52,470 nt of DNA, taken from assembly GCA_003567625.1 (NCBI GenBank), contig PWZB01000181.1, positions 1 to 52,470 on the forward strand. Direction: 5' to 3'. The notes beneath the pieces were generated by a model. The model was not told the DNA's origin. It saw only the letters and a program-made list of their open reading frames with translations, and did not search any database. This document shows positions 20,626 to 40,755 of the stretch, piece by piece; within the stretch, counting starts at the first letter, position 1; each line of letters opens with the position of its first letter. The stretch comes from Bacteroidales bacterium (lineage in GTDB: Bacteria > Bacteroidota > Bacteroidia > Bacteroidales > UBA7960). A program made the translations under genes and the position numbers.

Positions 20626-20721
20626 TCCCGCAGATATCGCAAATGTGCGCAGATTGATGATTAATGGCCCTTTAAACCAAATATAATAAATTATCAGCGA
20701 AAATCTGCGTGATCTGCGGGA
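20626..20721. repeat. REP-like imperfect palindrome (CCCGCAGAT family), copy 1
   Basis: TCCCGCAGATATCGCAAATGTGCGCAGATT...ATCAGCGAAAATCTGCGTGATCTGCGGGA. The reverse-complement homolog is at 22172-22261. Confidence 0.75.
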
Positions 20722-21984: not shown

Positions 21985-22150
21985 AGATAATGAATTCAGG
22001 ACTCATGATCCCATTACTGAATATCAATAAGTTATAATTTTTATGTCGCAATAAATAACAAATTACAAACCAACCAGCCCGGATTGTTTTGGTCATTGAA
22101 GTTTTGAAAATTGAATATTATTTGATTATTGATATTTGATTATTGATATT

Positions 22151-22292
22151 TGAGTACACTCTAAAAAGTATTTTCCCGCAGATGACGCAGATTTTCGCTG
22201 ATAAATATGATTGATTATCAGGAGTATATAATCTGCGCATATCAGCGAAATCTGCGGGAAATAATATTTTTGGACTTTTTAGAGTGGACTCA
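22151..22292. mobile_element. MITE with 19-bp terminal inverted repeats and 4-bp target-site duplication, carrying a CCCGCAGAT palindrome
   Basis: TGAGTACACTCTAAAAAGT / ACTTTTTAGAGTGGACTCA match 18/19. TATT flanks both sides (22147-22150, 22293-22296). The element interrupts a TTGATTA/TTGATAT heptamer run. Confidence 0.8.
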
Positions 22293-22462
22293 TATTTGAT
22301 TATTGATATTTTTTATAATAAAAATACGACATTTAATTTTACGACAGGTAAGGAGTCCTGAAATTATTATACTTTAGCTTAAACTTAGACCGGAAATTTG
22401 TAGTTTTGTAATGTTAAAATAAAAACCCTCTTTAGCATTTCCGACAACTAAAAATTGTCAAA

Positions 22463-25400
22463 ATGAAAAAAAATTTACTTCAACACCTTTTTTATAAAAC
22501 TGTTATTATCGTTTTGCTGGTGTTTGGGTTTAATCAGTTATTTGCCCGATCACCTGATATTAACTTTGAGCCCGAAAGAAGTTTTTCGGAAGTAACTGTT
22601 AACGATTTTGAATCAACACGGATCAAATTTGCTTTTGAAGGTCTCTATTATATACATGTAGAAACCCGCGAAGGTATGTTCACCGAACTGATCATGCCCC
22701 GTGGTTATAGCGTTGGGGATTTGGGAACTCCCAAGCTCCCGGCCTCAAAAAAGCTCATAGAGATTCCTTTTGGCGCGGAAGTCAGCGTAAAAGTGAAAAG
22801 CTATACTACTGAAGAATACCGTCTTTCGGATTTTGGAATTGAGCATCCGCTGATGCCGGTACAACCTTCTCTGCGCAAAGACCAAAACATTGATGAAGTA
22901 CCTTTCAGATACCGCGCTGACCATTACGGCAAAACCGGTTTTATTGAACCCGGGCTGGCATCGGTTGAAATTCTCGGAGTAATGAGAGGACAGCGCCTGG
23001 GGCGTCTCACCGTTGCACCGGTACATTACAACCCCACCGAAGGTACTATCATGGTATATAATAATATAGTGGTTGAGATTCAATACACGGGAGCGGATAA
23101 AGCTCTCACCCATTACATCAAAGCCTCAACATATTCGCCCTATTTTGATGCGGTTTACAACCAGGTTATCAATCCCTTCGATACAAGGGATATATTTGAA
23201 GATTACCCCGACCTCACCAAATACCCCATAAAAATGGTAATCGTTTCCCATCCCGATTTCAAAGAATCCTTGCAGCCATTCATTGAATGGAAAACCATCA
23301 TTGGATTCAAAATAATAGAAGCTTATACCGATGAAATTGGCAATACAGCGGCTGCTATTAAAAATTTCATACACGAGCAATACCACGAGGGAACCCCCGA
23401 AGACCCCGCCCCCACTTTTGTTATTGTCGCAGGTGACCCCGGCAAATTGCCGGCTTCCGGCATAGGTGGCGCTTCAGAACAGGTTACCGACCTGTACTAT
23501 GCCTCCGTTGACGGCGATTATTTCCCCGACATGTATATAGGACGCCTGTCTGCCAGAAATGTGCCGGAACTGCAAAACCAACTGGATAAAATACTTTACT
23601 ACCAGAAATATGAATTTGATGATCCTTCTTTCTTAAATGATGTTACATTAATAGCGGGTGCAGATCATTTATCCTGGAACACGAAAATAGGCCAACCGAC
23701 AGTACAATATGGCACCAACTATTACTTTAACACAGCTAACGGTTTCGTTAACGTCAATGCATACCTGGCTAACTACGCAGGCTGTTATGATGAAGAAAGA
23801 ATCTCGGTAAGTCTGATTAACTACACTGCACATTGTTCACCAACCAGTTGGTCAAATCCTTCCCTAACCGTTAGTAATATACACAATATGACCAATACAG
23901 GCAAATACCCGTTAGCCATTGGAAACTGCTGCATGAGCGCCCTGTTCAGCCATTCCGAATGTATCGGGGAAGCATGGGTAAGAGCTAAAGATAAAGGCGC
24001 CGTTGCATATATTGGCTCCGCACCCAACACCCATTGGTTTGAAGACTTCTACTGGTCAGTAGGCGCTTTCCCTATTGAAGGCCAAAATAACGGTTATGTG
24101 CCGGATACCGTTGAAACAACGCTTGGAGCATATGATGCACCTTTTGTTTCCGATTACAGGGCAATAGCTTCCTTAAAATTTGTCGGCAACCTGGCTATCA
24201 CCGAAGCACACCTGCAAGGATACCCCACTCACTCCAATGTGCAATGGTACTGGGAAGGATATCATACATTCGGTGACCCTTCAACAATTATATATCTGAC
24301 CGAAGGTGATGAAAATACAGTTGAACATATGGATTACTTGCCTGCCGGTGTTGATCTTTTCACAGTTAATGCCAACCCGGGCTCTTATGTAGGCATATCA
24401 AAGGATGGGGTTTTACACGGAGCAGCACTCGTGGATGAAAGCGGCCAGGCGGATGTCCCAATAGACCCCCTGCAGGATGAAGGATATGCTACCATTGCCG
24501 TCACCAAACCGCAATATATACCCTACGTGCAGGAAATACCCGTTAAAGGATATAATACCGTCACCTTTGATATTAAAGATAAAAACGGAGATGAAATAAC
24601 CGGGGCTGTCGTAACTTTCGACGGCCAAACAAACGACCCGGGTGATTATATATTCAAAAACATAGAAGAGGGCGATTACGAATACAAGGTAGAAAAAGAA
24701 GGATACTTCACAAAAGAAAGCGAAGTTACCGTGGAAGATGACACCACGGTTGATGTTACTATGATCGGAGCATACGTCGTTACCTTTGAAATCGAAGATA
24801 AAGATGGTAATGAAATACCCGATGCTGTCATTACTTTCGACGGCAATACATACGACCCGGGCAATTATGTGTTTAAAGAGCTTGAAGCCGGAACATATGA
24901 ATACGTGGTAGAAAAAAACGGATACTTCACCTTTGAAAACGAAATTGTTGTAGAGGAAGATGTTACTGTAAATATTAAACTGGCCAGAGCATATATCATT
25001 ACCTTTGAAGTTGAAGATGTTAAAGGTGATGAAATAACCGGGGCTGTTATTACTTTCGATGGTGTTGAATATGAACCGGACGAATATATATTTGAAGACA
25101 TAGAAGGCGGAACTTATGATTACAAAGTGGAAAAAAAGGGATTTTTTACCGTTGAAAATGAGATTACAGTGAAAAGCAATGTTTTTGTAAAAGTTATAAT
25201 GGAATTCGATGACACTTATGTTGATATGGTGACGGATGCCGAACTGTCAGTATTCCCCAACCCCGCACGAAACAAGTTTACCGTCAGATCAAACGAAATG
25301 ATCAAACAAATAAGACTGTTTGACATCAGCGGACAAACAGTTAAAGATATAACTGTAAATGAATTAAGTTCAGAAATAAAAATAAGCAATCTGAATACAG

Positions 25401-25468
25401 GTATTTATGTTATGCAAATCCGCACCGCCGGGAACGTAATGACTAAACGTGTCCGGATTGTACGTTAA
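22463..25468 (+). CDS. Lys-gingipain (Kgp)-like C25 cysteine peptidase with propeptide, three acidic Ig-like repeats and T9SS type A CTD
   Basis: Signal peptide, C25 propeptide, NYTAHC...LAIGNCC catalytic His/Cys, AYIGSAPNTHWFEDFYWSVGA, FGDP and the CTD VFPNPA...GIY...KRVRIVR. Confidence 0.88.
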   Translation: MKKNLLQHLFYKTVIIVLLVFGFNQLFARSPDINFEPERSFSEVTVNDFESTRIKFAFEGLYYIHVETREGMFTELIMPRGYSVGDLGTPKLPASKKLIEIPFGAEVSVKVKSYTTEEYRLSDFGIEHPLMPVQPSLRKDQNIDEVPFRYRADHYGKTGFIEPGLASVEILGVMRGQRLGRLTVAPVHYNPTEGTIMVYNNIVVEIQYTGADKALTHYIKASTYSPYFDAVYNQVINPFDTRDIFEDYPDLTKYPIKMVIVSHPDFKESLQPFIEWKTIIGFKIIEAYTDEIGNTAAAIKNFIHEQYHEGTPEDPAPTFVIVAGDPGKLPASGIGGASEQVTDLYYASVDGDYFPDMYIGRLSARNVPELQNQLDKILYYQKYEFDDPSFLNDVTLIAGADHLSWNTKIGQPTVQYGTNYYFNTANGFVNVNAYLANYAGCYDEERISVSLINYTAHCSPTSWSNPSLTVSNIHNMTNTGKYPLAIGNCCMSALFSHSECIGEAWVRAKDKGAVAYIGSAPNTHWFEDFYWSVGAFPIEGQNNGYVPDTVETTLGAYDAPFVSDYRAIASLKFVGNLAITEAHLQGYPTHSNVQWYWEGYHTFGDPSTIIYLTEGDENTVEHMDYLPAGVDLFTVNANPGSYVGISKDGVLHGAALVDESGQADVPIDPLQDEGYATIAVTKPQYIPYVQEIPVKGYNTVTFDIKDKNGDEITGAVVTFDGQTNDPGDYIFKNIEEGDYEYKVEKEGYFTKESEVTVEDDTTVDVTMIGAYVVTFEIEDKDGNEIPDAVITFDGNTYDPGNYVFKELEAGTYEYVVEKNGYFTFENEIVVEEDVTVNIKLARAYIITFEVEDVKGDEITGAVITFDGVEYEPDEYIFEDIEGGTYDYKVEKKGFFTVENEITVKSNVFVKVIMEFDDTYVDMVTDAELSVFPNPARNKFTVRSNEMIKQIRLFDISGQTVKDITVNELSSEIKISNLNTGIYVMQIRTAGNVMTKRVRIVR

Positions 25469-25485
25469 CCATTTTCAGATAATAT

Positions 25486-25520
25486 AAACCCTGGAAGTTT
25501 TAATAACCTCCAGGGTTTTT
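25486..25520 (+). terminator. Intrinsic terminator or stabilising hairpin after the Kgp-like gene
   Basis: AAACCCTGGA...TCCAGGGTTT followed by T. Confidence 0.7.
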
Positions 25521-25560
25521 AATTAAACATCTTTTTATTAACCAAATTTCGTTAGATGTT

Positions 25561-28011
25561 ATGAAAAAATTTAAATTATTTATTTCAAAACCTTTTATTT
25601 GCTCAGTTTTTATAAGCTTTATTGCCGCCATTTCTGTACAAAGCATTGATGCGCAGGAGCTTAAAGGCAATTCACAAAACAACACTGAAAATTCCCGGGT
25701 TAAAACAGGGAACAGCCCGGCTCTTGATTTAAAAAACATCCCCGAAGAAGCATACCATCCCGGTATAATACGGATACAATTCAACCGGGATTTTGAAAAC
25801 AGCCTTGAAAAAATTGATTTTGAGATCACCGGTAATGACTATGTAAAAACAGGCATTCCTGCTTTGGATAAGCTCAACAAAGCTTTTAGAGTACATGAAT
25901 ACAAACCCATGCTGAAAAATCTTTATAGGGTTTCAAAAGCATCGGTCAGGAACAGGGAAAAACACAAGGAATGGGGATTTCACCTTTGGTATGACCTGAA
26001 ACTTGACAATACGGCTGATGTAATTAAAGCTGCCATTGACTTCAAAAAGCTTGAGGAAATAAAAATTGCTCAACCCGTTTTAAAAACACAACTTATTGAG
26101 ACTGTTGACAGCAAACCTGCAAAAGAAAATGACGGGGGTTCAAAATGGACTCCCAACGACCCTTTATATAAAGATCACCAGTGGCATTTTAATAATACCG
26201 GCCAGATAATCGGTGGGCAACCCGGCCTGGTAGGAATGGATTGCAATGCCGAAGCCGCCTGGGATATTGAAACAGGCAATCCGGATGTAATTGTTGCAAT
26301 TATAGATTCCGGGATGGAATACTATCACGAAGATCTGGAAGGTAATATGTGGGATTTGATAGGTCCGGATGGTACTGCAACCATACCCGACCTTCATGGT
26401 ACTCTCATCGGAGGGATATTGGGTGCCGTTACAAACAACAATACCGGGGTTGCAGGCTTGGCAGGAGGCAGCGGCTCCGATGATGGTGTCAGGCTTATGA
26501 GCATTGATATTATTAATGGAAGCTTATCACCACCTGGGGCTTTTATCTATGCTGCCGACAATGGGGCTGCAATAGCCCAAAACAGTTGGGGTTATGCTTT
26601 ACAGGGCAATTTCCCGCCGGAAACAAAAGACGCTATTGACTATTTTAATGAAGAAGGCGGTGGCGACGCATTAGACGGCGGAATAACTATCTTTGCCGCC
26701 GGTAATAACAACGATAATGGAGAGTATTACCCGGCATACTATGAAGGAACAATAGCTGTTGCCGCTCACGACAACCAGGGTGCCAAATCAGTGTTCTCTA
26801 ATTACGGTGACTGGATTGATATTATCGCCCCTGGAACAGATATTACAGCCACAATACCGGACAATGAATATGGAACCTATTGTGGTACTTCAGAAGCTTG
26901 CCCGCATGTCTCCGGCGCAGCAGCCCTGGTTGTTTCAAACGCATACGGCATGCTGACAAACACTGAACTATGGGATATATTAATAGAAAGTACTAACGAT
27001 GACATCTATAACTATAATCCAGGTTATACCGGAATGCTCGGAAGCGGCAGACTCGATGCCTATGCCGCCCTTTTGCTGCTCAAACAAGAGTACACCGTTA
27101 CTTTTAATATCACAGATGAAGACGGTGATGAAATAACAAACGCAATCGTTACTTTCGATGGTGTTACAAACGACCCGGGTGATTACATATTTGAAGAGAT
27201 AGAAGAAGGAAATTATGATTATATAGTAGAAAAAGAAGGATACTTAACAGAAGAAGACGAAGTGTACGTTGATGATGATATTACTGTGGAGGTTATAATG
27301 ATTGCGGAAACATACACCGTTACTTTCAATGTCAAAGATGAAGACAGTGATGAAATAACAGACGCAATCGTTACTTTCGATGGCGTAACAAACGACCCGG
27401 GTGATTACGTATTTGAAGAGATAGAAGAAGGAACTTATGATTATATAGTAGAAAAAGAAGGATACTTAACAGAAGAAGACGAAGTGTACGTTGATGATGA
27501 TATTATTGTGGAGGTTATAATGATTGCGGAAACATATACCGTTACTTTCAATGTCAAAGATGAAGACAGTGATGAAATAACAGACGCAATCGTTACTTTC
27601 GATGGCGTAACAAACGACCCGGGTGATTACGTATTTGAAGTGATAGAAGCCGGAACCTATGATTATAAAGTGGAAAAAGACGGATTCATCACTGTTGAGG
27701 ATGATATTATCGTGGATAGCGATACCGTTGTTGAAGTAGTAATGGAAATTGATGACACTTTTATTGATATGGTGGAAAACGCGGAACTGTCAGTATTCCC
27801 AAACCCCGCACGTGACAAGCTTACAGTCAGATCAAACGAAATGATCAAACAAATAAGACTGTTTGACATCAGCGGGCAAACGGTTAAAAACATAACTGTA
27901 AATGATTTAAGGATAAAAATCAACATAAGCAACCTGGAAACAGGAATTTATGTTATCCAGGTACATACTGCAAGAAACGTTATAAACAAACGTGTCCGGA
28001 TTGTGCCTTAA
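25561..28011 (+). CDS. S8 subtilisin-like serine peptidase with N-terminal prodomain, three acidic Ig-like repeats and T9SS CTD
   Basis: Catalytic triad IIDSG / LHGT / GTSEACPH, oxyanion AAGN, SNYG and a CTD starting VFPNPA. Confidence 0.9.
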   Translation: MKKFKLFISKPFICSVFISFIAAISVQSIDAQELKGNSQNNTENSRVKTGNSPALDLKNIPEEAYHPGIIRIQFNRDFENSLEKIDFEITGNDYVKTGIPALDKLNKAFRVHEYKPMLKNLYRVSKASVRNREKHKEWGFHLWYDLKLDNTADVIKAAIDFKKLEEIKIAQPVLKTQLIETVDSKPAKENDGGSKWTPNDPLYKDHQWHFNNTGQIIGGQPGLVGMDCNAEAAWDIETGNPDVIVAIIDSGMEYYHEDLEGNMWDLIGPDGTATIPDLHGTLIGGILGAVTNNNTGVAGLAGGSGSDDGVRLMSIDIINGSLSPPGAFIYAADNGAAIAQNSWGYALQGNFPPETKDAIDYFNEEGGGDALDGGITIFAAGNNNDNGEYYPAYYEGTIAVAAHDNQGAKSVFSNYGDWIDIIAPGTDITATIPDNEYGTYCGTSEACPHVSGAAALVVSNAYGMLTNTELWDILIESTNDDIYNYNPGYTGMLGSGRLDAYAALLLLKQEYTVTFNITDEDGDEITNAIVTFDGVTNDPGDYIFEEIEEGNYDYIVEKEGYLTEEDEVYVDDDITVEVIMIAETYTVTFNVKDEDSDEITDAIVTFDGVTNDPGDYVFEEIEEGTYDYIVEKEGYLTEEDEVYVDDDIIVEVIMIAETYTVTFNVKDEDSDEITDAIVTFDGVTNDPGDYVFEVIEAGTYDYKVEKDGFITVEDDIIVDSDTVVEVVMEIDDTFIDMVENAELSVFPNPARDKLTVRSNEMIKQIRLFDISGQTVKNITVNDLRIKINISNLETGIYVIQVHTARNVINKRVRIVP
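27091..27756 (+). repeat. Three tandem 222-bp (74-aa) intragenic repeats
   Basis: Units start at 27091, 27313 and 27535. Long stretches are nearly identical at DNA level. Confidence 0.9.
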
Positions 28012-28155
28012 AAAGAGTATGCAAATTGCAGGCATTCAGTATCTCATAGTATGTTCTTTCGGGCGTATTCCCGGCAGACTTCTAAATTTAGTGATCTTTT
28101 ATGACAGTACAATATTTTTATTAAAATTTAATTATGAATCTAAAAAAGTAATATT

Positions 28156-30873
28156 ATGAAAAGAACTATTTATTTAATTGTTTTCTTAATGGCGGGTATG
28201 TTTTTTACCGCCAACGCACAAAGCAACTGGGCAGGTATTAACAGTTACGAATCTGTTCCTGCAGATGTAAGGCTTGTACAGAGCAACATCCAGAACACCC
28301 GGATACAGTTTTCGCTGGATGGATACAAGGAAACACCTTTGGAAACGCCGCGCGGAACTCAAATGGTGATCAGTGTCGGGGAAGGAGTACAAATAATTGA
28401 AAAAGGCAAGCCGGATATGGCAAAGCTGGCCTCTACCATCATTATTACCGACATGGATGAAATGGAAGTAAATGTGGTCAGCTATGAATACCAGGAATTT
28501 ACCGGTGTGGAAGTAGCGCCTTCGAAAGGGCATTTCGTAAGGAGCATTAACCCCGACGACGTACCCTTTACTTATGGTGAAGTTTACCAGGCCGATGCTT
28601 TCTGGCCCGGCGAACTAGCTCAGCTTGAAGACCCCTTTATCATGAGGGATTTCCGCGGCCAAACCGTGACGATATTCCCGTTTCACTACAACCCCGTTAG
28701 CAAAACTCTCAGGGTATATACCGACATAGTGGTGGATGTATCCTCCACAGGCAACATTGGAGAAGACCCATTTATGCGCACCCGGGATGAGATAGTCTTG
28801 GAACCTGAATTCGGCAGGATTTATGAACGCTTCTTTTTGAACATGGAGGCGGCCGAAAGAAGCTACCCAATGCTCGAAGGAGAAGAAGGCAGCATGCTGA
28901 TTATCTGCTATGATGATTTTATGGATGCAATGAAGCCATTCGTTGACTGGAAACGTACAATAGGAAGAAAAACCGAAATTGTGCCCCGGTCAGAAGCAGG
29001 AAACACATGGCAACAAATAAAAAGCTATGTGGAAGATTATTATGACCAAAACGAAGACTTCGCCTACTTGCTGCTTGTTGGCGATGCACCAAATCAAATA
29101 CCCGCAGGAATAGGCACATATGGAAACGACTCCGACAATATATATGGAATAATATCCGGGATGTATAATGACATTTTTGTCGGACGTTTTTCAGCCGAAA
29201 CCGTTGCTCATGTCGAAACACAGGTGCAACGTATGATAGAATATGAAAGAGACATTGACGAATCCGACACATGGTTAAGCAACGGCTTAGGCGTTGCCCG
29301 CAATGAAGGTCCCGGTCATTACGGGGAATACGACCATGAACACATGAATTTTATCAGGGATACCCTGCTTAACTTTACCTACGACGTGGTTCACAGTTGT
29401 TATGACGGACCGGGGCACCACACTACCGCTGCTGAAATTTCAGGGCATATCAACGATGGAGTCTCTACTATCAACTACTGCAACCATGGCTTTGTTACCG
29501 CGTGGAGTGTTGCCGGTTACGCAATATACCATGTAAACCAGCTTACCAATGTAGGCAAGCTGCCATATGTCCAATCGGTAGCCTGTGTAAATGGTGATTT
29601 TGTGAACCAATTCTGTTTCGCGGAAGCATGGCTACGTGCCACACATGACGGTGAACCTACAGGAGCTATAGGCTTTCTGGGAGCTACCATCAACCAGCTA
29701 TGGAATCCTCCCATGTGCGGACAGGACGAAATGGTAAGCATCAAAACCGAAGAAAGTATCGCCCACGGCAGTACTATTAAAAGAACATACGGCGGTGTAT
29801 CCACCAACGGCAGTATGTTTATGATACCTCAATACGGTGGCTCAGGTATTGACACCCATGAAACATGGATACTATTTGGCGACCCGTCACTGATGGTCAG
29901 AACCGACGTGCCCACACCTTTCGAACCCGAATACCCAAGCGAAATCAGCATGGGCGACGAGTCATTCACGGTTACTTCGATTGATGACGGAGCCACAGCA
30001 GCCCTCTCATACATTGATGACAACGATGAAGTAATAATACTTGGCACGGCTATCGCACAAGATGGCACGGCAGAGATCATCTTTGACGAACCCCTCGAAG
30101 AAGAAATAACAGCTACACTCGCAATTACCGGCTTTAATAAAGTAACCTATATCAACGATGAAATTGAAAGCCTCGCAAATTACACCGTTACCTTTGAAAT
30201 CGAAAATGAAGATGGAAAGGAAATCACAGACGCCATAATTACTTTCGACGGCAGTGAATACGAGCCCGGCGAATATGTAATTGAAAACGTGGAAAAAGGA
30301 AACTACGACTATCTGGTGGAAAAAGACGGATTCTTCAACGTTGAAGATGATGTTACAGTGGAACAAGATATCACGGTTGAGGTTATAATGATCGGGGCAT
30401 ACATAGTTACATTTGAAATTGAAGATGAAGATGGTAATGAAATCACCGATGCGGTCATTACTTTCGACGACGTTAAATACGACCCGGGTGAATATGTAAT
30501 TGAAGATATTGAAGCCGGAACATATGATTACAAAGTGGAAAAAGAAGGATTCTTAAGCGTTGAAGACAACACTGAAGTAGATGACGATGTTACTGTAAAA
30601 GTAATAATGGAAACTGATACTTACGTTGATACACCTGTTGCCGTCGAACTTTCAGTATTCCCGAATCCTGCACGCGACAAGTTTACCGTCGAATCAAGCG
30701 AAATGATCAAACAAATAAAAATAATTGATATCAGCGGGCAAACGGTTAAAGATATGGCTGTTGGTGGATTGCGCTCCGAAATCAGCGTAAACAACCTGAA
30801 AGCAGGGGTTTACTTTATGCAAATCCATACTAAACAAAGCATAATAACCGAACGCGTCCAGATTGCACGATAA
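28156..30873 (+). CDS. Arg-gingipain (Rgp)-like C25 cysteine peptidase, paralog 1, with two acidic repeats and T9SS CTD
   Basis: APSKG..R propeptide loop, FIMRDFRGQ, FVGRFSAE, NYCNHG and SVACVNG catalytic motifs, CFAEAW, PPMCGQDEM, FGDPSL and CTD. Confidence 0.9.
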   Translation: MKRTIYLIVFLMAGMFFTANAQSNWAGINSYESVPADVRLVQSNIQNTRIQFSLDGYKETPLETPRGTQMVISVGEGVQIIEKGKPDMAKLASTIIITDMDEMEVNVVSYEYQEFTGVEVAPSKGHFVRSINPDDVPFTYGEVYQADAFWPGELAQLEDPFIMRDFRGQTVTIFPFHYNPVSKTLRVYTDIVVDVSSTGNIGEDPFMRTRDEIVLEPEFGRIYERFFLNMEAAERSYPMLEGEEGSMLIICYDDFMDAMKPFVDWKRTIGRKTEIVPRSEAGNTWQQIKSYVEDYYDQNEDFAYLLLVGDAPNQIPAGIGTYGNDSDNIYGIISGMYNDIFVGRFSAETVAHVETQVQRMIEYERDIDESDTWLSNGLGVARNEGPGHYGEYDHEHMNFIRDTLLNFTYDVVHSCYDGPGHHTTAAEISGHINDGVSTINYCNHGFVTAWSVAGYAIYHVNQLTNVGKLPYVQSVACVNGDFVNQFCFAEAWLRATHDGEPTGAIGFLGATINQLWNPPMCGQDEMVSIKTEESIAHGSTIKRTYGGVSTNGSMFMIPQYGGSGIDTHETWILFGDPSLMVRTDVPTPFEPEYPSEISMGDESFTVTSIDDGATAALSYIDDNDEVIILGTAIAQDGTAEIIFDEPLEEEITATLAITGFNKVTYINDEIESLANYTVTFEIENEDGKEITDAIITFDGSEYEPGEYVIENVEKGNYDYLVEKDGFFNVEDDVTVEQDITVEVIMIGAYIVTFEIEDEDGNEITDAVITFDDVKYDPGEYVIEDIEAGTYDYKVEKEGFLSVEDNTEVDDDVTVKVIMETDTYVDTPVAVELSVFPNPARDKFTVESSEMIKQIKIIDISGQTVKDMAVGGLRSEISVNNLKAGVYFMQIHTKQSIITERVQIAR

Positions 30874-30875
30874 AA

Positions 30876-30919
30876 AACCTCTTTAATAACTTGGTTTTCA
30901 AGTTATTCTTTTTGAGGTT
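30876..30919 (+). terminator. Hairpin downstream of Rgp-like paralog 1
   Basis: AATAACTTG/CAAGTTATT inner stem followed by CTTTTT, with outer AACCTC/GAGGTT. Confidence 0.55.
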
Positions 30920-31189
30920 GTTAAAGCAATATATAATAAGCTATCAGGTTTCTGATTTTTAAGCACTTATAAAATCAAAAATCGTTAATCGATATTCGTT
31001 AATCAAAAAAGTTTGGCATTAGCGTTATAAAAAAACTATTATCTTTGTATTACTAAAGTTCTTTAAAACGAGAATGTTTTAATCAACAACCCCGATATCC
31101 TTAAATCCACTTATTTTTAACCGTTTTTTATACGAAGTATTATTGCTATAGTTTTTTATTTAATTATCAATCAAAAAAGTAAAATTATT

Positions 31190-34141
31190 ATGAAACGAAC
31201 TGTTTATTTAATTGTTTTTTTATTTGCGGGTATGTTTTTTTCATCGAATGCACAAAGCAACTGGATGGGAATTAGCAGCTACGAGCCTGTGCCGGCAGAT
31301 GTAAAGCTTGTACAGAGCGACATCCGGCAAAGCCAGGTGCAATTCTCGCTGGACGGATACAAGGAAACACCTTTGGAAACACCACGCGGAACACAAATGG
31401 CAATCAGTGTCGGAGAAGGCGTACAAATAATGAAAAAAGGCAAGCCGGACATGGCAAAGCTCACATCAACCATTATCATTCCCGACATGGATGAAATGGA
31501 AATTAATGTAGTCAGCTATCAATACCAGGAATTTACCGGTGTGGAAGTAGCACCCTCGAAAGGGCATTTCGACAGGAGCATTAATCCCGACGACGTGCCG
31601 TTTACATACGGAGAAGTTTATGAAAAAGATGCTTTCTGGCCCGGAAAGCTCGCCCGGCTCGAAGACCCCTTTATCATGAGGGATTTCCGCGGGCAAACCG
31701 TTACCGTATTCCCGTTTCACTACAACCCGGTGAGCAAAACATTAAGGGTATATACCGACATAGAGATTGAAGTAACTTCCACAGGCAGAACAGGCGAAGA
31801 CCCCCTGACCAGAACAAGGGATGTGATAGTGGTAGAACCTGAATTCGGCAGAATCTATGAACGCTTCTTTTTGAACATGGAAGCAGCCGAAAGAAGCTAC
31901 CCGATGCTCGAAGGAGAAGAAGGCAGCCTGCTGATTATCTGCTATGACCCTTTTATGGATGCAATGAAGCCGTTCGTTGACTGGAAGCGGACTATCGGCA
32001 GGAAAACCGAGATAGTGCCAAAGTCGGAGGCAGGAAACACATGGCAACAAATAAAAAGCTACGTGGCAGATTATTACGACCAAAACGAAGACTTCGCCCA
32101 CCTGCTGCTTATCGGCGATGCGCAAGCTCAAATACCCGTAGCCATAGGGCATCAGGGCGGTCAATCCGACAATATGTACGGGTTCCTGGAAGGGCACAAC
32201 TCATTTAACGACATCTTTGTCGGGCGTTTCTCAGCCGAAACCGTCGCACATGTCGAAACACAAGTGCAACGCATGATAGAATATGAAAGAGACATTGACG
32301 AATCCGACGCATGGTTAAGCACCGGCTTGGGAATTGCACGCAATGAAGGTGGCGGTATGGGGCATCATGGAGAAGCAGACCATCAACACATGGACTTTAT
32401 CAGGGATACGTTGCTTAACTATACTTACGACGTGGTTCACCGTTGTTATGACGGACCCGGCTTCAGCACCTCTGCCGCTATAATTTCAGGGCATATCAAT
32501 GACGGTGTTAGTGCCATTAACTTCTGCAACCACGGTTATGTCACCGGGTGGAGCGTCGCCAACTACAATATCAATCATGTTAACGCTCTTACAAACGTTG
32601 GCAGGCTGCCATATATCACTTCGGTAGCTTGTGTAAACGGTGCTTTTGTGAATCAATTCTGTTTTGCTGAAGCATGGCTGCGTGCCACACACAACGGCGA
32701 ACCCACAGGTGCTATTGGCATGATGGCAGCTACTATCAACCAGCCATGGCAGCCCCCGATGTGCGGACAGGACGAAATGGTAAGCATCAAAACAGAGGAA
32801 AGCATTCCTCTTGGCCCCACAATCAAAAGAACATACGGCGGTGTTTCTGCCAACGGCAGTATGTTTATGATACCCCAATACGGTAGTACGGGTATAAATA
32901 CCCACGAAACATGGATACTCTTCGGCGACCCGTCACTGATGGTCAGAACCGACGTGCCCACACCTTTCGAACCCGAATACCCAAGTGAAATCTCGTTCGG
33001 AGATGAATCATTCACGGTTACATCGGTTGACGACGGCGCTACAGCAGCCCTCACATACATTGATGACTACGACGAAGTGATAATACTTGGCACGGCTATC
33101 GCACAAAACGGCACGGCAGAGATCGTCTTTGACGAACCCCTGGAACTGGAAGAAGGAACCGTTACACTCGCCATTACCGGATTTAATAAAGTAACTTACA
33201 TTAACGATGAAATTGAAATCATGGCAGGATTTACCGTTACCTTTGATATCGAAGATGAAGACGGCGATAAAATCACAGATGCCATAATTACTTTTGATGG
33301 CATCGAGTACGAGCCCGGAGAATACATACTTGAACAAGTAAAAGAAGGAACCTACGACTATATGGTTGAAAGAGACGGATTTTTCCCCGTTGAAGATAAA
33401 GTTACCGTACAAGACGATATGACGGTTGATGTTACTATGATCGGAGCATACGTTGCTGCTTTTGATATCGAAGATAAAGAGGGTGATAAAATCACAGATG
33501 CCATAATTACTTTCGATGGCGTTAAATACGAGCCAGGCGAATATGTGTTTGAAGACCTCGAAGCAGGAACGTATGAATATGAAGTTGAAAAAGACGGATT
33601 CTTCCCCACTGAAGACGAGATTAAAGTGGAAGAAGATGTTACGGTAAATGTAACACTGGATAAAGCACATACGGTTACTTTCGAAGTTACAGATATAAAA
33701 AATAATGAAATCACCGATGCTGTCATTACTTTTGATGGTGTTGAATACGACGAGGGGGAATACATTATTGAAAATATTGAAGAAGGAACATATGATTACA
33801 AAGTTAAAAGAGATGGATTCCTTCCAGTTGAAAACAACATTGATGTGGATCGTAATGTTTTCCTGAAGGTAATAATGGAAGGCGAAACTTATGTTGATAC
33901 ACCTGTTGAAGTTGAATTGAAGGTATTCCCCAACCCTGCACGCGACAAGTTTACAGTTGAATCAAGCGAAATGATCAAACAGGTCAGGCTGATTGATATC
34001 AGCGGACAAGTGGTTAAAGAAGTATTCGTTGATGCATTACGCTCCGAAATCAACGTAAGCAACCTGCATACAGGAGTCTATTTTATGCAAATTCAAACTG
34101 CCGAAAAAGTAATAACCAAACATGTTCAGGTAGCACGATAA
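31190..34141 (+). CDS. Arg-gingipain (Rgp)-like C25 cysteine peptidase, paralog 2, with three acidic repeats and T9SS CTD
   Basis: Same motifs as paralog 1 (NFCNHG, SVACVNG, FGDPSL) and colinear with it at DNA level. Confidence 0.9.
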   Translation: MKRTVYLIVFLFAGMFFSSNAQSNWMGISSYEPVPADVKLVQSDIRQSQVQFSLDGYKETPLETPRGTQMAISVGEGVQIMKKGKPDMAKLTSTIIIPDMDEMEINVVSYQYQEFTGVEVAPSKGHFDRSINPDDVPFTYGEVYEKDAFWPGKLARLEDPFIMRDFRGQTVTVFPFHYNPVSKTLRVYTDIEIEVTSTGRTGEDPLTRTRDVIVVEPEFGRIYERFFLNMEAAERSYPMLEGEEGSLLIICYDPFMDAMKPFVDWKRTIGRKTEIVPKSEAGNTWQQIKSYVADYYDQNEDFAHLLLIGDAQAQIPVAIGHQGGQSDNMYGFLEGHNSFNDIFVGRFSAETVAHVETQVQRMIEYERDIDESDAWLSTGLGIARNEGGGMGHHGEADHQHMDFIRDTLLNYTYDVVHRCYDGPGFSTSAAIISGHINDGVSAINFCNHGYVTGWSVANYNINHVNALTNVGRLPYITSVACVNGAFVNQFCFAEAWLRATHNGEPTGAIGMMAATINQPWQPPMCGQDEMVSIKTEESIPLGPTIKRTYGGVSANGSMFMIPQYGSTGINTHETWILFGDPSLMVRTDVPTPFEPEYPSEISFGDESFTVTSVDDGATAALTYIDDYDEVIILGTAIAQNGTAEIVFDEPLELEEGTVTLAITGFNKVTYINDEIEIMAGFTVTFDIEDEDGDKITDAIITFDGIEYEPGEYILEQVKEGTYDYMVERDGFFPVEDKVTVQDDMTVDVTMIGAYVAAFDIEDKEGDKITDAIITFDGVKYEPGEYVFEDLEAGTYEYEVEKDGFFPTEDEIKVEEDVTVNVTLDKAHTVTFEVTDIKNNEITDAVITFDGVEYDEGEYIIENIEEGTYDYKVKRDGFLPVENNIDVDRNVFLKVIMEGETYVDTPVEVELKVFPNPARDKFTVESSEMIKQVRLIDISGQVVKEVFVDALRSEINVSNLHTGVYFMQIQTAEKVITKHVQVAR

Positions 34142-34177: not shown

Positions 34178-34214
34178 AAAAAAAGGGAAGGACAAGACAG
34201 CCTTCCCTTTTTTT
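34178..34214. terminator. Bidirectional intrinsic terminator between the protease array and recG
   Basis: AAAAAAAGGGAAGG-loop-CCTTCCCTTTTTTT between convergent genes. Confidence 0.88.
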
Positions 34215-34245
34215 ATACAAATAAAACAACACATAAAATATAGTT

Positions 34246-37549: not shown

Positions 37550-39892
37550 ATGTTCAGGATAAAAATATTCATTTCTTACATATTACTTGTTTTTACAACC
37601 ACTGTCGTTTCGGCGGAATCATATCAAAGGCACACCCTGAGGGGTTACATTCGTGATTCTTCGAGCGGCGAGGATCTTTCCGGTGCGACGGTTCGCATAA
37701 GGGAGTTATCAACCGGAACCACCACAAACCGTTATGGATTCTACAGCATCAGCCTTCCGGAAGGATCATATCAGTTGAAAATATCATACATAGGGTACAA
37801 TACAAAATATTATGACGTTGAATTGGATTCAAACAAAACAATTGATTTTGAATTAAAGCCTGAAGAAACGCTGCTTGATGAGGTTGTCATTACCGATGAA
37901 AAAGCTGATCGCTGGATATCGGAAGTACGTATGAGCACTACACAACTACAGATGGATATGATCAAATCACTTCCTTCATTTATGGGTGAGGTGGATATAC
38001 TCAAAACATTGCTTTTGCTGCCCGGTGTGTCGTGGGGAACCGAAGGCAGTACAGGTTTTTTTGTCAGGGGCGGTGGCCAGGACCAAAATATGGTATTGCT
38101 TGATGAAGCTACCGTATATAATGCTTCGCATTTGATGGGCTTTTTCTCGGTTTTCAATCCCGACGCCATTAAAGACCTTCAGCTTTATAAAGGTGGTATT
38201 CCCGCCCAATATGGCGGCAGGCTATCATCCGTACTCGATATACGCATGAAAGAAGGAAACAACAGGGATTTCAGCGGATCAGGCGGCATAGGCAGCATTT
38301 CAAGCCGCCTTACAGTTGAAGGCCCCCTGCAAAAAAATGTAAGCAGCTTTATTGTATCAGGAAGACGTACCTACGCCGATTTGTTCCTGCCTCTTTCAGC
38401 AGATACCAACATAAGAAAAAACCGGCTCTATTTTTATGACCTTAATGCCAAAGCCAACTACCGCTTTAGCGATAAAGACAGGATATTTGTCTCCGGTTAT
38501 TTTGGCAGAGATGTGTTCAGATTTGATGATATCTTTGGTTTTGAATGGGGCAATACCACAACTACAATGCGCTGGAACCATATATTTAACAGTAATATAT
38601 TCTCAAATTTCACACTTGTTTACAGCAATTACGACTACAATATGTCATTTGCCGATGATCTGCAATCTTTAGACTGGATTTCAAATATTCAGGATATTAA
38701 TTTTAAAGGCGATTTTACCTGGTATCCCAATCCTGAAAATACTATCAGATTTGGCCTGCACTCATCTTACCATTCAATTGATCCCGGACATGTCAAAGGC
38801 AATTTTGATAATTCAACGCAAACAGATTATAAAGTTCCCGACAACAACGTTTTACAACACGCATTATATGCGTCAAACGAACAACAGCTGTCAAAAAACA
38901 TTACAGTTGAATATGGATTACGTTATTCACTGTTTCAAAACATCGGTAAAGGAACCGTTTATTCATTAGATGACGAATACCGGGTAATTGACACAACCAC
39001 ATATGCTGCCGGTGAAATATTTCATAATAACCACGGCCTTGAGCCCCGGATAAGTGTCGTTTACCAGGTTGACTCACGGCAAAGCTTTAAAGCCAGCTAT
39101 AATCGCATGCGACAGTATCTGCACCAGGCAACCAATTCAACAACAGCAACCCCGCTGGATATATGGTTTCCCACAAGCCCAAATATTGAACCGCAAATTG
39201 CCGACCAGGTAGCTGTAGGATACTTCAGAAACTTCATGGATAACATGTTCGAAAGTTCCCTGGAAGTGTACTACAAGAATATGGAAAACCAGATAGATTT
39301 CCGCGATCACGCGGTATTAATTTTAAACCCAAGGCTTGAAAGCGAAATAAGGACAGGAAAAGCATGGTCGTATGGTTTGGAGCTCATGATAAACAAATCC
39401 AAAGGTGATTTTACGGGATGGCTAAGCTATACATGGTCAAAAACCAGGCGGAAAATACCTGCCATAAATAACGGAAAACCCTACCCCGCTCCACATGACC
39501 GCCCGCACGATATTTCAATTGTTTTATCTTACGACATTAGCGACCGCCTGAACATAGCAGCCAACTGGGTATATAACACCGGCAGGCCCGTTACCCTGCC
39601 AACAGGCAGATTTGAATACGGCGGAATGATATTACCAGTATATTCCGATAGAAACGCAGAAAGATTGCCCGATTACCACAGACTTGACCTCTCGGCAACA
39701 ATTTATACAAGAACCAGGCCCGACAGAAACTGGCAGGGAAAATGGAATATCTCGGTTTATAATGCATATCACAGGAAAAATGTCTTTTCATACTATTTCA
39801 GACAACACGATGATAACCCCTATGAAACACAGGCATATAAAATATACATGTTCGGTATTGTCCCGGCAATTTCTTATAGTTTTTCATTTTGA
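37550..39892 (+). CDS. TonB-dependent receptor with N-terminal carboxypeptidase-regulatory-like domain
   Basis: GTTTNRYGFYSI, GEVDILK, LPGV, VRGG..DQN, YKGGIPAQYGGRLSS, YHRLD and C-terminal Phe. Confidence 0.9.
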   Translation: MFRIKIFISYILLVFTTTVVSAESYQRHTLRGYIRDSSSGEDLSGATVRIRELSTGTTTNRYGFYSISLPEGSYQLKISYIGYNTKYYDVELDSNKTIDFELKPEETLLDEVVITDEKADRWISEVRMSTTQLQMDMIKSLPSFMGEVDILKTLLLLPGVSWGTEGSTGFFVRGGGQDQNMVLLDEATVYNASHLMGFFSVFNPDAIKDLQLYKGGIPAQYGGRLSSVLDIRMKEGNNRDFSGSGGIGSISSRLTVEGPLQKNVSSFIVSGRRTYADLFLPLSADTNIRKNRLYFYDLNAKANYRFSDKDRIFVSGYFGRDVFRFDDIFGFEWGNTTTTMRWNHIFNSNIFSNFTLVYSNYDYNMSFADDLQSLDWISNIQDINFKGDFTWYPNPENTIRFGLHSSYHSIDPGHVKGNFDNSTQTDYKVPDNNVLQHALYASNEQQLSKNITVEYGLRYSLFQNIGKGTVYSLDDEYRVIDTTTYAAGEIFHNNHGLEPRISVVYQVDSRQSFKASYNRMRQYLHQATNSTTATPLDIWFPTSPNIEPQIADQVAVGYFRNFMDNMFESSLEVYYKNMENQIDFRDHAVLILNPRLESEIRTGKAWSYGLELMINKSKGDFTGWLSYTWSKTRRKIPAINNGKPYPAPHDRPHDISIVLSYDISDRLNIAANWVYNTGRPVTLPTGRFEYGGMILPVYSDRNAERLPDYHRLDLSATIYTRTRPDRNWQGKWNISVYNAYHRKNVFSYYFRQHDDNPYETQAYKIYMFGIVPAISYSFSF

Positions 39893-39939
39893 AAAAAACA
39901 TAACAATTTATTAAACCAAATGAATAAAAAAACAAACAG

Positions 39940-40755
39940 ATGAACAAAATATATTTATCATTGATTTTAATCCTATTCGTCAGCCTTTCATCATGCGTCG
40001 AAGAGATTGACCTTATTCTTGACGGAGATGATCGAAAACAACTGGTCGTTGACGGGATGATAACAACCGACACTACATCACACATTGTAGATCTTTCCAA
40101 AACAGCCCCCTACTTTTCAAAAGAACAAACAGAAAGGGTTTCAGGAGCTGAAGTAACAATAAGTGATGATCTCGGAAATGTTTTTTACCTATATGAAACC
40201 GAACCCGGTATTTATAAAACCGACACAAATGTTTATGGCTTGGCAGGACGAACATATACTCTTAATATAAATTACGACGGCGAATCATATTATTCCGAAT
40301 CAACCATGAAGCGGGTTATGGAAGCCGATTCGCTGAGCTATAAATGGGACGAGGTGCGCGAACAATATATCATCTTGTTTTACGGACAAGAACCAAAAGG
40401 CAAAGGCGACATTTATATGTGGCATCTCTATAGAAACGGGAAGTTGATAACCGATACTATCAATAAAGTATTGTTTACCGATGATGAGTTTTTTGACGGC
40501 ACCTATATAGAAGGGTGGGAAATAAACCACTGTAGCCACGATTACAATATTCAAAAATATGATACTGTTACGGTTGATACACATTCAATTACAGAAGATG
40601 CCTTGTTGTTCTTCACAGGGCTGCTTTCCGAATCCGGCTATAGCAGTAACCCGTTCAGCCCCCCGCCGGCAAATATTCACAGCAATATTTCAAATGATGC
40701 ATTAGGCCTGTTCCTTGCATCGGCAATCAACAGGAAAACAATAATTATCGAATGA
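39940..40755 (+). CDS. DUF4249-like lipoprotein partner of the TonB-dependent receptor
   Basis: Lipobox LSSC, LVVDG.IT, SGAEV.I and C-terminal SNISN.ALG.F; usual position behind this receptor type. Confidence 0.75.
   Translation: MNKIYLSLILILFVSLSSCVEEIDLILDGDDRKQLVVDGMITTDTTSHIVDLSKTAPYFSKEQTERVSGAEVTISDDLGNVFYLYETEPGIYKTDTNVYGLAGRTYTLNINYDGESYYSESTMKRVMEADSLSYKWDEVREQYIILFYGQEPKGKGDIYMWHLYRNGKLITDTINKVLFTDDEFFDGTYIEGWEINHCSHDYNIQKYDTVTVDTHSITEDALLFFTGLLSESGYSSNPFSPPPANIHSNISNDALGLFLASAINRKTIIIE

Follow-up and report, generated by a model that had tools for sequence, protein, structure and literature searches.

A cluster of predicted gingipain-related secreted proteases in a Bacteroidales genome

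Introduction

Research on gingipains has dealt with them almost exclusively as virulence factors of a single oral pathogen, Porphyromonas gingivalis. As far as the available excerpts of two papers go, the only Porphyromonas reported to have gingipains are P. gingivalis and its closest relatives (PMC10394638, PMC8861167). The window analysed here, a 52,470-nucleotide stretch of Bacteroidales DNA (contig PWZB01000181.1 of assembly GCA_003567625.1), carries genes for three relatives of these enzymes next to a subtilase gene, which raises the question of whether the four genes form a gingipain-like system and what such a system would do outside Porphyromonas.

Results

Four protease genes form a same-strand cluster

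ORF calls place four protease genes on the + strand at 22463-34141: gene 1 (22463-25468) encodes a Kgp-type C25 cysteine peptidase zymogen of 1001 aa, gene 2 (25561-28011) an S8 subtilase of 816 aa, and genes 3 (28156-30873) and 4 (31190-34141) Rgp-type C25 peptidase zymogens of 905 and 983 aa, with intergenic gaps of 92, 144 and 316 nt. All four proteins combine a Sec signal peptide and a prodomain with a 73-aa beta-sandwich repeat, present two or three times, and a T9SS C-terminal domain (CTD). The original prediction of Kgp-like, subtilase and two Rgp-like genes in tandem thus agrees with the ORFs and the Pfam domains, and the three profiles proposed for checking it (Peptidase_C25, Propeptide_C25 and Por_Secre_tail) were found in all three C25 proteins. 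Judged by sequence, the cluster is a gingipain-related set of predicted secreted proteases, one Kgp-type, one S8 and two Rgp-type.

Gene 1 has a signal peptide at about aa 1-28, a prodomain that ends at R242 and bears inhibitory-loop Lys K139, catalytic and IgSF domains at aa 243-697 (D401/H457/C490, with S1 Asp D528), three 73-aa repeats (24554-25210) and the T9SS CTD (25250-25465). It matches Propeptide_C25 (2.2e-19), Peptidase_C25 (1.2e-53; PF01364 183 bits against a cut-off of 23), Peptidase_C25_C and Por_Secre_tail. When compared with solved structures it is far closer to Kgp (3.6e-117, 395.6 bits) than to RgpB (9e-25, only 89.7 bits), and its prodomain matches that of Kgp at 7e-43. A long protein of another genome, G196, was considered as a stand-in for Kgp and set aside, as at 360 bits to Kgp it is no closer than gene 1. 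Residue equivalences were counted along HMMER alignments to the solved structures, and the positions were then checked. By this count K139 (codon 22877) is the counterpart of the loop Lys in chain 5mun, numbered K129 by chain counting. R242-D243 (23186/23189), D401, H457 (23831), C490 (23930) and D528 (24044) correspond to R228-D229, D388, H444, C477 and D516 of Kgp, the last four of which are given as functional sites in the consulted part of one paper (PMC13708565). The predicted Kgp hallmarks, namely the Lys of QPSLRK, the R-D site, the TAH..GNCC pair and the Asp of WFEDFYW, are therefore all in place and match Kgp. K139, D401, H457, C490 and D528 are invariant in 12 sequences of 33-54% identity. 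By homology, gene 1 is predicted to encode a Lys-specific clan-CD cysteine endopeptidase.

Genes 3 and 4 match Propeptide_C25 (about 1e-38), Peptidase_C25 (about 1e-50; PF01364 171 and 177 bits against the same cut-off of 23), C25_C and Por_Secre_tail; PF08126 (prodomain) and PF03785 (IgSF) are above their cut-offs in genes 1, 3 and 4 alike. Here the likeness is reversed, gene 3 scoring 4.6e-97 (329 bits) to RgpB versus 8e-11 (44 bits) to Kgp, and gene 4 scoring 4.8e-95 (322 bits) versus 41 bits, with prodomains that match that of RgpB at about 1e-43. R129, R235-S236, E384, D393 (codon 29332), H444 (29485) and C477 (29584) of gene 3 are the equivalents of RgpB R126, R229-Y230, E152, D163, H211 and C244, and gene 4 likewise has R129, an R235-S236 junction, S1 Asp D397 (32378), H448 (32531) and C481 (32630). 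The roles of Asp163, Arg126 and Arg229 in RgpB are described in the consulted parts of two papers (PMC4357240, PMC4138498). Both genes carry the expected loop Arg, R/SYP site, NHG..VACVNG pair and GExD Asp, and across the three C25 genes every predicted codon coordinate for a catalytic, S1, loop or maturation-site residue is right, with residues that align with those of solved Kgp or RgpB. Gene 3 has two 73-aa repeats (30181-30621) between its IgSF domain and its T9SS CTD and gene 4 has three (33230-33889) ahead of its CTD; their pro and catalytic parts are 83% identical. Both are predicted, again by homology, to be Arg-specific clan-CD cysteine endopeptidases.

In gene 2, a signal peptide is followed by Peptidase_S8_N (aa 68-214), a catalytic domain at aa 242-481 with the Asp motif IIDSG (247-251), the His motif LHGT (278-281) and the Ser motif GTSEA (442-446), three 73-aa repeats (27091-27756), the first two of which are 95% identical in DNA, and the T9SS CTD. 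Pfam matches are Peptidase_S8_N, Peptidase_S8 (2.7e-33; PF00082 at 116 bits, above cut-off) and Por_Secre_tail. In the PDB it matches the thermitase-like AK.1 protease (8.7e-35), with the Asp/His/Ser triad aligned, and gene 2 is accordingly annotated as a putative thermitase-like serine protease of predicted broad specificity.

No Cleaved_Adhesin (PF07675) match was found in any of the four proteins at E<=0.01, in keeping with the claim that the locus lacks haemagglutinin/adhesin domains; such domains are present on other proteins of the same genome. Since gene 1 has no such match, it is Kgp-type in its protease part only and not a Kgp polyprotein.

The four genes have a common C-terminal cassette for T9SS export

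The 73-aa repeats are PEGA/CarboxypepD_reg-like, and their 11 copies over the four genes are positionally homologous. The CTDs are 60-80% identical across the cluster, reaching 80% between the Kgp-type and S8 genes, whereas the pro and catalytic parts of the Kgp-type and Rgp-type genes have only 25% identity and the S8 fold is unrelated. The same repeat and CTD cassette is carried by 15 ORFs genome-wide, and it has probably come to be common to the four genes through recombination. The proteins have the features of type-A T9SS cargo, with a C-terminal Por_Secre_tail/TIGR04183 domain and the export machinery encoded in the genome: a profile search found PorU (1260 bits), PorU2 (760), the SprA/Sov translocon (SprA, 2694) and PorV (501), along with 57 Por_Secre_tail matches, 53 of them above cut-off.

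Noncoding elements surround the genes as well. The 478-nt gap upstream of gene 1 holds an unstranded palindromic dispersed repeat of about 150 nt (22150-22295), MITE/REP-like, with an RNA fold of -59.3 kcal/mol over 22140-22300; blastn places further copies (>=90% identity, >=94 nt) on 12 other contigs, in several cases at contig ends; it likely sits in the promoter region of gene 1, outside the protease system itself. A perfect palindromic hairpin with a 14-bp stem and a following T run (25486-25518) lies 18 nt past the gene 1 stop and is terminator-like. A G+C-rich hairpin with A and T runs on its flanks (34180-34215), in the space that separates gene 4 from the convergent RecG gene, looks like a bidirectional terminator; it was read by eye, its loop exceeding the limit of the terminator scan. 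Terminator-like hairpins follow genes 1, 3 and 4, which suggests separate transcripts and not one operon, in a region whose 12 terminator-like sites are no enrichment over the 11.9 of shuffled sequences; a sigma-70-type promoter scan found 41 sites against 32 +/- 6.1 in shuffles. A sequencing-run search listed no RNA runs and two DNA runs with a small share (0.11 of words).

Kgp-type and Rgp-type genes recur as a tandem across the order

The original prediction described a one-Kgp-plus-two-Rgp set like that of P. gingivalis. The MAG holds eight C25 genes, among them a third Rgp-type gene, which on another contig (C58) neighbours a second S8 gene, two further propeptide-bearing C25 genes, PorU and PorU2; the third Rgp-type paralogue bears PKD and other domains. 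With at least three Rgp-type genes and two S8 genes beside Rgp-type genes, the genome therefore does not have such a set. Nor is the arrangement unusual: of the 401 genomes sampled from the order, 211 have a Kgp-type gene, and of the 61 informative loci, 27 have an Rgp-type gene after the Kgp-type one. Rgp-type genes were found in 65 of 151 sampled genomes.

Where the two adjoin, they are 12-333 nt apart; 26 of these 27 pairs keep a single gene order, and several families are represented. In four genomes (G003, G007, G014 and G020) the pair follows genes for fumarase, RbfA, a methyltransferase and an FtsX permease, and in G035, from another family, methyltransferase-sized and FtsX-sized ORFs precede it. 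The order Kgp-type, S8, Rgp-type is found again in G056 and G421, at 41-53% identity. In a tree from a quick search, the Kgp-type and Rgp-type genes form separate clades of matching branching order with PorU and PorU2 outside; because this tree has no P. gingivalis sequence, orthology to Kgp and RgpB rests on pairwise scores. These comparisons suggest that the Kgp-type and Rgp-type pair is an old co-inherited unit, and that in this genome an S8 gene was probably gained between its members and the Rgp-type gene recently duplicated.

The prodomain junctions bear on whether the paired zymogens act on each other. Among 120 Kgp-type relatives the aligned junction residue is Arg in 43, Lys in 23 and another residue in 54, so the Kgp-type maturation site is not to be taken as conserved. 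In six tandem pairs from close relatives, the Kgp-type junction has Arg and the Rgp-type junction Lys, the pattern expected for reciprocal cross-activation; the window and P. gingivalis have Arg at all junctions. We tentatively propose, as a possibility on the doubtful side, that the pair is an ancient two-enzyme module of free-living Bacteroidales, made up of mutually activating zymogens, and not an invention of a periodontal pathogen, with S8 genes recruited repeatedly and the stalk and CTD exchanged.

It is also conceivable that the four genes are uncoupled, independent secreted proteases brought together via shared cassettes and local duplication at a recombination-prone spot. Coupling is indeed not obligatory, as 34 of the 61 informative loci lack an Rgp-type gene after the Kgp-type one and G002 carries the two on separate contigs, and the terminator-like hairpins between and after the genes and the genome-wide spread of the cassette over 15 ORFs also fit independent genes. 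Set against this are the adjacency of the pair in a near-constant order across several families, the congruent branching of the two clades, the reappearance of Kgp-type, S8 and Rgp-type genes in two genomes at such low identity and the Arg that the Kgp-type zymogen has at its aligned junction, and we consider uncoupled genes unlikely.

Specificity residues are conserved and the proteins are distinct from PorU

A further reading keeps the gingipain fold and supposes that P1 specificity has drifted or that the enzymes have a narrow processing role, for example in maturing other T9SS cargo. A processing role is known for one C25 enzyme, PorU, and our check of the pocket covers its S1 Asp and a few other residues. 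The S1 Asp and the His/Cys pair are present in 120 of 120 relatives of each type (Glu in 119 of 120 Rgp-type), and the substrate-mimicking loop residue is Lys in 119 and Arg in one of the Kgp-type sequences and Arg in 119 and Lys in one of the Rgp-type sequences. Scores to Kgp and RgpB are high, at 395 and 329 bits. Identity of genes 1, 3 and 4 with PorU is rejected by scores of 27-43 bits to NF033707/NF052324, far below cut-offs of 420-450, where the genome's own PorU reaches 1260 bits. Grouping with PorU, raised beforehand as a possible refutation, was also looked for, and the genome's own PorU and PorU2 fall outside the Kgp-type and Rgp-type clades. We regard drifted specificity or a narrow processing role as improbable.

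Least probable is a role in virulence, with the set serving a host-associated pathogen as the gingipains serve P. gingivalis. The likeness to the gingipains, which are the main virulence factors of P. gingivalis according to the consulted part of one paper (PMC4138498), is close, but the family occurs in roughly half of the genomes sampled from the order, the closest loci among the best 80 listed are from uncultured MAGs, the four proteins have no haemagglutinin/adhesin domains, and C25 genes dominate the predicted exported peptidases of estuarine sediment, making up 41-45% of signal-peptide-bearing peptidase genes in the portion available of a metagenomic study (PMC6752024). A scan of genome contigs found no Porphyromonas locus among those best 80, and all of the closest ones come from Bacteroidales MAGs, in line with the predicted non-Porphyromonas host.

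Discussion

We think it probable that the locus encodes four separately made, T9SS-exported surface or extracellular proteases, one Lys-specific, two Arg-specific and one thermitase-like, that work as follows. In the periplasm, by analogy with the solved P. gingivalis enzymes, the prodomain would keep each C25 enzyme latent by placing Lys139 or Arg129 of its inhibitory loop in the Asp-lined S1 pocket. After export, PorU would remove the CTD and anchor the protein on the cell surface, with the 73-aa repeats serving as a stalk. The Rgp-type enzymes would mature by self-cleavage at Arg129 and Arg235 and would also cleave the prodomain of the Kgp-type enzyme at Arg242, and together with the broad-specificity S8 enzyme the set would turn environmental proteins into peptides for uptake. 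Activation by the Rgp-type enzymes at Arg sites, as originally proposed, is plausible by homology, there being Arg at all three aligned junctions. The most likely function would accordingly be that of surface-anchored zymogens that break down protein for nutrition and, as in P. gingivalis, are activated at Arg sites.

The find is real, but with such gene pairs common in the order it is one unremarkable instance of a widespread family that has been little studied. Relatives are labelled only 'C25 family cysteine peptidase', 'T9SS ... sorting domain-containing protein' or 'hypothetical protein', which bears out the claim that the locus is uncharacterised, and we found no report of a Kgp-type/Rgp-type tandem outside Porphyromonas in the main texts of open-access papers and bioRxiv preprints (gene lists may be in their supplements). 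Some modest extra interest may lie in the conserved tandem, the common C-terminal cassette and the possible cross-activation. The complete apparatus for Lys/Arg specificity and latency is present and strongly conserved in about half of the sampled genomes, recurrently as a tandem, which suggests that the gingipain system arose in the environment, for nutrition. The family also offers many natural Lys- and Arg-specific variants, which are useful as proteomics reagents, and suggests a zymogen cross-activation circuit that is testable.

Comparison with known systems

With P. gingivalis Kgp (PDB 4rbm, 4tkx, 5mun), a protein of about 1,700 aa, gene 1 has in common the triad, S1 Asp, loop Lys, Arg-Asp junction and T9SS CTD, but it has three 73-aa repeats instead of Cleaved_Adhesin/haemagglutinin domains. 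Ser precedes the loop Lys in the Kgp chain, whereas gene 1 reads PSLRK, with the Arg that precedes this Lys in 103 of 120 Kgp-type relatives. Gene 1 also adjoins Rgp-type genes, while in P. gingivalis the genes kgp, rgpA and rgpB are scattered. Genes 3 and 4 keep the Glu/His/Cys, S1 Asp, loop Arg and junction Arg of RgpB (PDB 1cvr, 4ief) and its adhesin-free pro-catalytic-IgSF-CTD layout, and differ in the two or three extra repeats between IgSF domain and CTD and in the presence of three paralogues in the MAG. PorU is of the same Pfam family (PF01364) and another subfamily.

The KLIKK peptidases of Tannerella forsythia have a common C-terminal extension. They are likewise several T9SS-secreted peptidases of different catalytic classes in one organism, as the consulted part of one paper describes (PMC9890683). 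Mirolase (8ehe), a subtilisin of this set, is among the weaker PDB matches of gene 2 (6.1e-19). The catalytic classes and common cassette of the KLIKK set are not those of the window, and no potempin-like inhibitor gene precedes the window genes, the gaps holding no + strand ORF of >=100 aa. Environmental reports, in the parts consulted, treat C25 as a single Arg-preferring class with no Kgp/Rgp split and no tandem, and one notes a dockerin-bearing C25 and an S8 in Cloacimonadota (PMC8542988). Exchange of the repeat and CTD cassette in the window may be likened to the repeated adhesin regions common to kgp, rgpA and hagA.

Organization and genomic surroundings of the protease cluster

The four protease genes occupy 22463-34141 on the + strand with gaps of 92, 144 and 316 nt between them, and the N-terminus of each product is signal-peptide-like, with a basic stretch followed by a hydrophobic one. 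Based on Pfam and NCBIfam models, the Kgp-type gene 1 (22463-25468; 1001 aa) encodes Propeptide_C25, Peptidase_C25, Peptidase_C25_C (IgSF), PEGA/CarboxypepD_reg-like repeats and Por_Secre_tail, and this domain order recurs in the Rgp-type genes 3 (28156-30873; 905 aa) and 4 (31190-34141; 983 aa). Gene 2 (25561-28011; 816 aa) encodes an S8 subtilase in which Peptidase_S8_N and Peptidase_S8 precede the same repeats and Por_Secre_tail. As originally predicted, haemagglutinin/adhesin domains are missing from the cluster, the Pfam search having found no Cleaved_Adhesin in the four window proteins.

Housekeeping genes surround the cluster, those for fumarase, RbfA, methyltransferase and FtsX-type permease upstream and a convergent RecG gene downstream. 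The window corresponds to contig C135 in a 2.38-Mb metagenome-assembled genome (G000) of 199 contigs and 88.9% completeness. A few kb downstream, at 37550-40755, we noted the gene for a DUF4249 protein preceded by one for a TonB-dependent receptor whose N-terminus carries a CarboxypepD_reg domain; the pair may be tied to peptide uptake. A scan placed a hairpin with a perfect 14-bp stem and a T run after gene 1 (25486-25518), and hairpins with T runs were found by eye after genes 3 and 4; the transcription-signal scans gave no enrichment over shuffles, and a search for RNA data returned none. Upstream of gene 1 lies a palindromic element of about 150 nt (22150-22295; fold -59.3 kcal/mol; partial copy at 20626-20721) bordered by 'TTGATTATTGATATTTGA' repeats. 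Twelve other contigs carry copies with at least 90% identity over at least 94 nt, and several of these copies sit exactly where a contig ends; the element resembles a dispersed repeat of the MITE/REP type at which the assembly breaks.

Specificity residues match those of Kgp and RgpB

Among solved structures, gene 1 best matched the Kgp catalytic and IgSF domains (3.6e-117, 395.6 bits) and the Kgp prodomain (7e-43), with RgpB reaching only 9e-25, while gene 3 matched RgpB (4.6e-97) and its prodomain (1.3e-43) ahead of Kgp (8e-11) and gene 4 matched RgpB (4.8e-95). By counting along the printed alignments of these matches and then checking the positions, we equated gene 1 residues K139, R242|D243, D401, H457, C490 and D528 with Kgp K129, R228|D229, D388, H444, C477 and D516, the number 129 of the Kgp loop lysine being based on counting along the chain. 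By the same procedure, gene 3 residues R129, R235|S236, E384, D393, H444 and C477 correspond to RgpB R126, R229|Y230, E152, D163, H211 and C244, the gene 4 equivalents being R129, R235, D397, H448 and C481; all codon positions originally predicted for the gingipain residues proved correct. Passages of published work list Asp388, His444, Cys477 and Asp516 as functional sites of Kgp (PMC13708565) and, for RgpB, describe Asp163 as the ligand of the P1 Arg, an inhibitory loop that puts Arg126 into S1, and autoprocessing at Arg126 and Arg229 (PMC4357240, PMC4138498). For gene 2, alignment to thermitase-type enzymes (AK.1 protease, 8.7e-35) shows the Asp, His and Ser motifs to be retained.

The loop, pocket and catalytic residues of the C25 proteins are highly conserved. 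In a Kgp-type set comprising gene 1 and all 119 of its listed best relatives, the loop residue is K in 119/120 and R in 1/120, and the Asp of the S1 specificity pocket, His, Cys and D401 are each present in 120/120; K139, D401, H457, C490, W525, E527 and D528 are moreover invariant in 12 sequences that are only 33-54% identical. The Rgp-type loop residue is R in 119 of 120 sequences and K in one, with S1 Asp, His and Cys in all 120 and Glu in 119. No other sequence evidence speaks as strongly for the predicted Lys and Arg specificity and gingipain-style latency as this match between loop residue and type of pocket. The junction between prodomain and catalytic domain is less constant, the aligned P1 of Kgp-type proteins being R in 43, K in 23 and another residue in 54 of 120; a motif search of 120 Rgp-type junctions gave R in 49, K in 49 and no motif in 22.

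The cluster is distinct from PorU and part of a larger C25 complement

A PorU-like identity of genes 1, 3 and 4 is ruled out by model scores and tree position. The NCBIfam PorU/PorU2 models score these genes at 27-43 bits against cut-offs of 420-450, and in a 38-row quick-search tree built without P. gingivalis sequences, PorU and PorU2 fall on long branches outside the Kgp-type clade (16 rows; SH-aLRT 99) and the Rgp-type clade (18 rows; 94). The genome's own PorU (contig C180) scores 1260 bits, and a PorU2 paralogue of 1659 aa (C85, locus L010; 760 bits, NF052324) is present in addition to the canonical PorU-PorV pair of C180. [quoted passage not shown]

A PF01364 search recovered eight C25 genes in G000 (three in the window, PorU, PorU2, a Rgp-type gene on C58, and one each on C158 and C40), and the proposed set of one Kgp and two Rgp enzymes is therefore incomplete. 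The C58 gene (locus L012, 3-6401, - strand) is a third Rgp-type gene, lying directly after a second S8 subtilase gene (813 aa, 60% identical to gene 2); its product exceeds 1264 aa, is cut by the contig end, is 85% identical to genes 3/4, and has PKD and InlB-B-repeat-like domains in place of 73-aa repeats. In the quick tree, genes 3 and 4 group with the C58 copy and the single orthologue from genome G003 in one 4-row clade (97), so the Rgp expansion is recent. On the short contigs C158 (L011) and C40 (L004) lie two paralogous C25 genes of a third type, whose products carry a propeptide and a long C-terminal region. Their score to RgpB is only 47 bits, and in the quick tree they are sister to the Kgp-type clade. 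Five PF07675 matches fall on other G000 proteins that are separate T9SS cargo (C179, also C48, C47 and C73), among them a 1281-aa ORF (C179, 29281-32259, - strand) with two Cleaved_Adhesin domains, 73-aa repeats and a T9SS C-terminal domain (CTD); the adhesin module is thus present in G000, unfused to proteases.

Kgp-type and Rgp-type genes are widespread and recur in tandem

Of 7998 candidates scored against the whole gene 1 protein, 1619 are relatives at E<=1e-3. The top 119 share 52-77% identity over 65-79% of the query and are mostly 1200-1650 aa long; those that have a name go only by 'C25 family cysteine peptidase', 'T9SS ... sorting domain' or 'hypothetical protein'. For the Rgp-type pro+catalytic part, scoring of 8000 candidates gave 3420 relatives, of which the best 118 apart from genes 3 and 4 are 45-81% identical. 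At E<=1e-80, the Kgp-type pro+catalytic part occurs in 211/401 sampled genomes of the order (130/237 genera), and the Rgp-type part was found in 65/151 sampled genomes (65/149 genera). A scan of species-representative genomes confirmed at least 591 Kgp-type loci (591/600 candidate stretches), and the best 80 of these are nearly all from metagenome-assembled genomes titled 'Bacteroidales bacterium'. Some bear the names Lentimicrobiaceae, Rikenellaceae, Tenuifilaceae or Draconibacterium instead, a few come from bins labelled Cloacimonadota, Marinimicrobia or Chlorobiota, and Porphyromonas is absent from these 80. Eight loci (L076, L081, L084, L086, L088, L090, L094 and L103) carry Kgp-type genes of 50-55% identity (best segment) in bins assigned to Cloacimonadota, Marinimicrobia/Neomarinimicrobiota, Ca. 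Celaenobacter or Chlorobiota, reflecting either lateral transfer or mis-binning. In passages of earlier studies, C25 'gingipain-like' genes dominate the predicted exported peptidases of estuarine sediment (PMC6752024) and vaginal species are reported to lack gingipains (PMC8861167).

Gene order is also conserved. Four genomes of the same family (G003, G007, G014 and G020) have the fumarase, RbfA, methyltransferase and FtsX genes followed by a Kgp-type and then a Rgp-type gene; Kgp precedes Rgp too in G035, of another family (there with 269-aa-like and 409-aa-like genes upstream), and in G037, of a third. Of the best 80 loci, 27 have the two types side by side (26 Kgp>Rgp, 1 Rgp>Kgp; gaps of 12-333 nt), 34 have them non-adjacent despite at least 1500 nt after the Kgp-type gene, and 19 are uninformative. 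The window's order, with S8 between Kgp and Rgp, recurs in G056 (L121, C11) and G421 (L075+L119, C69), where the proteins are 41-53% identical to those of the window; G147 (L122, C13) has the order Kgp>Rgp>Rgp, and G002 has the two types on separate contigs.

Taken together, the observation behind the original prediction is confirmed, and its interpretation is borne out in part. Sequence analysis establishes the domain architectures, the intactness of the catalytic and specificity residues, the signals for export, the T9SS machinery and the conserved tandem, and the mode of action would follow by homology. Lys139 or Arg129 occupying the S1 pocket would keep the zymogens latent, the Rgp-type enzymes would self-process at Arg129/Arg235, the Kgp-type zymogen would be processed at Arg242, and PorU would remove the CTD and mediate surface anchoring; the role of the enzymes is probably nutritional. 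A bolder reading comes from six tandem pairs of relatives (L040, L046, L048, L049, L051 and L071) with Arg at the Kgp-type and Lys at the Rgp-type junction, sites mapped by motif only; this is the pattern expected if the two enzymes were to cross-activate reciprocally. With this cluster, an already known and very widespread kind gains a new, uncharacterised member. Its conserved Kgp>Rgp tandem, recurrent S8 insertion and shared C-terminal cassette are worth noting, and we found no report of them in the main texts of the open-access papers and bioRxiv preprints searched.

A C-terminal cassette shared among cargo genes

Genes 1-4 contain eleven copies (3, 3, 2 and 3) of a 219-222-nt unit encoding 73 aa, a repeat found on fifteen ORFs of G000. 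A repeat resembles the one of equal rank in another protein more closely than its neighbour in its own, the last repeats, for instance, being mutually 64-66% identical; only repeats one and two of gene 2 (90% identical in protein, 95% in DNA) depart from this. The four CTDs are 60-80% identical, with the Kgp-type and S8 CTDs at 80%, whereas identity between the pro+catalytic parts of the Kgp-type and Rgp-type proteins is only 25% and the S8 fold is unrelated. These comparisons indicate that cargo genes have exchanged a stalk and CTD cassette. Such sharing resembles that of P. gingivalis kgp, rgpA and hagA, for which passages of published work describe repeated adhesin regions in common and discuss gene conversion (PMC5266723).
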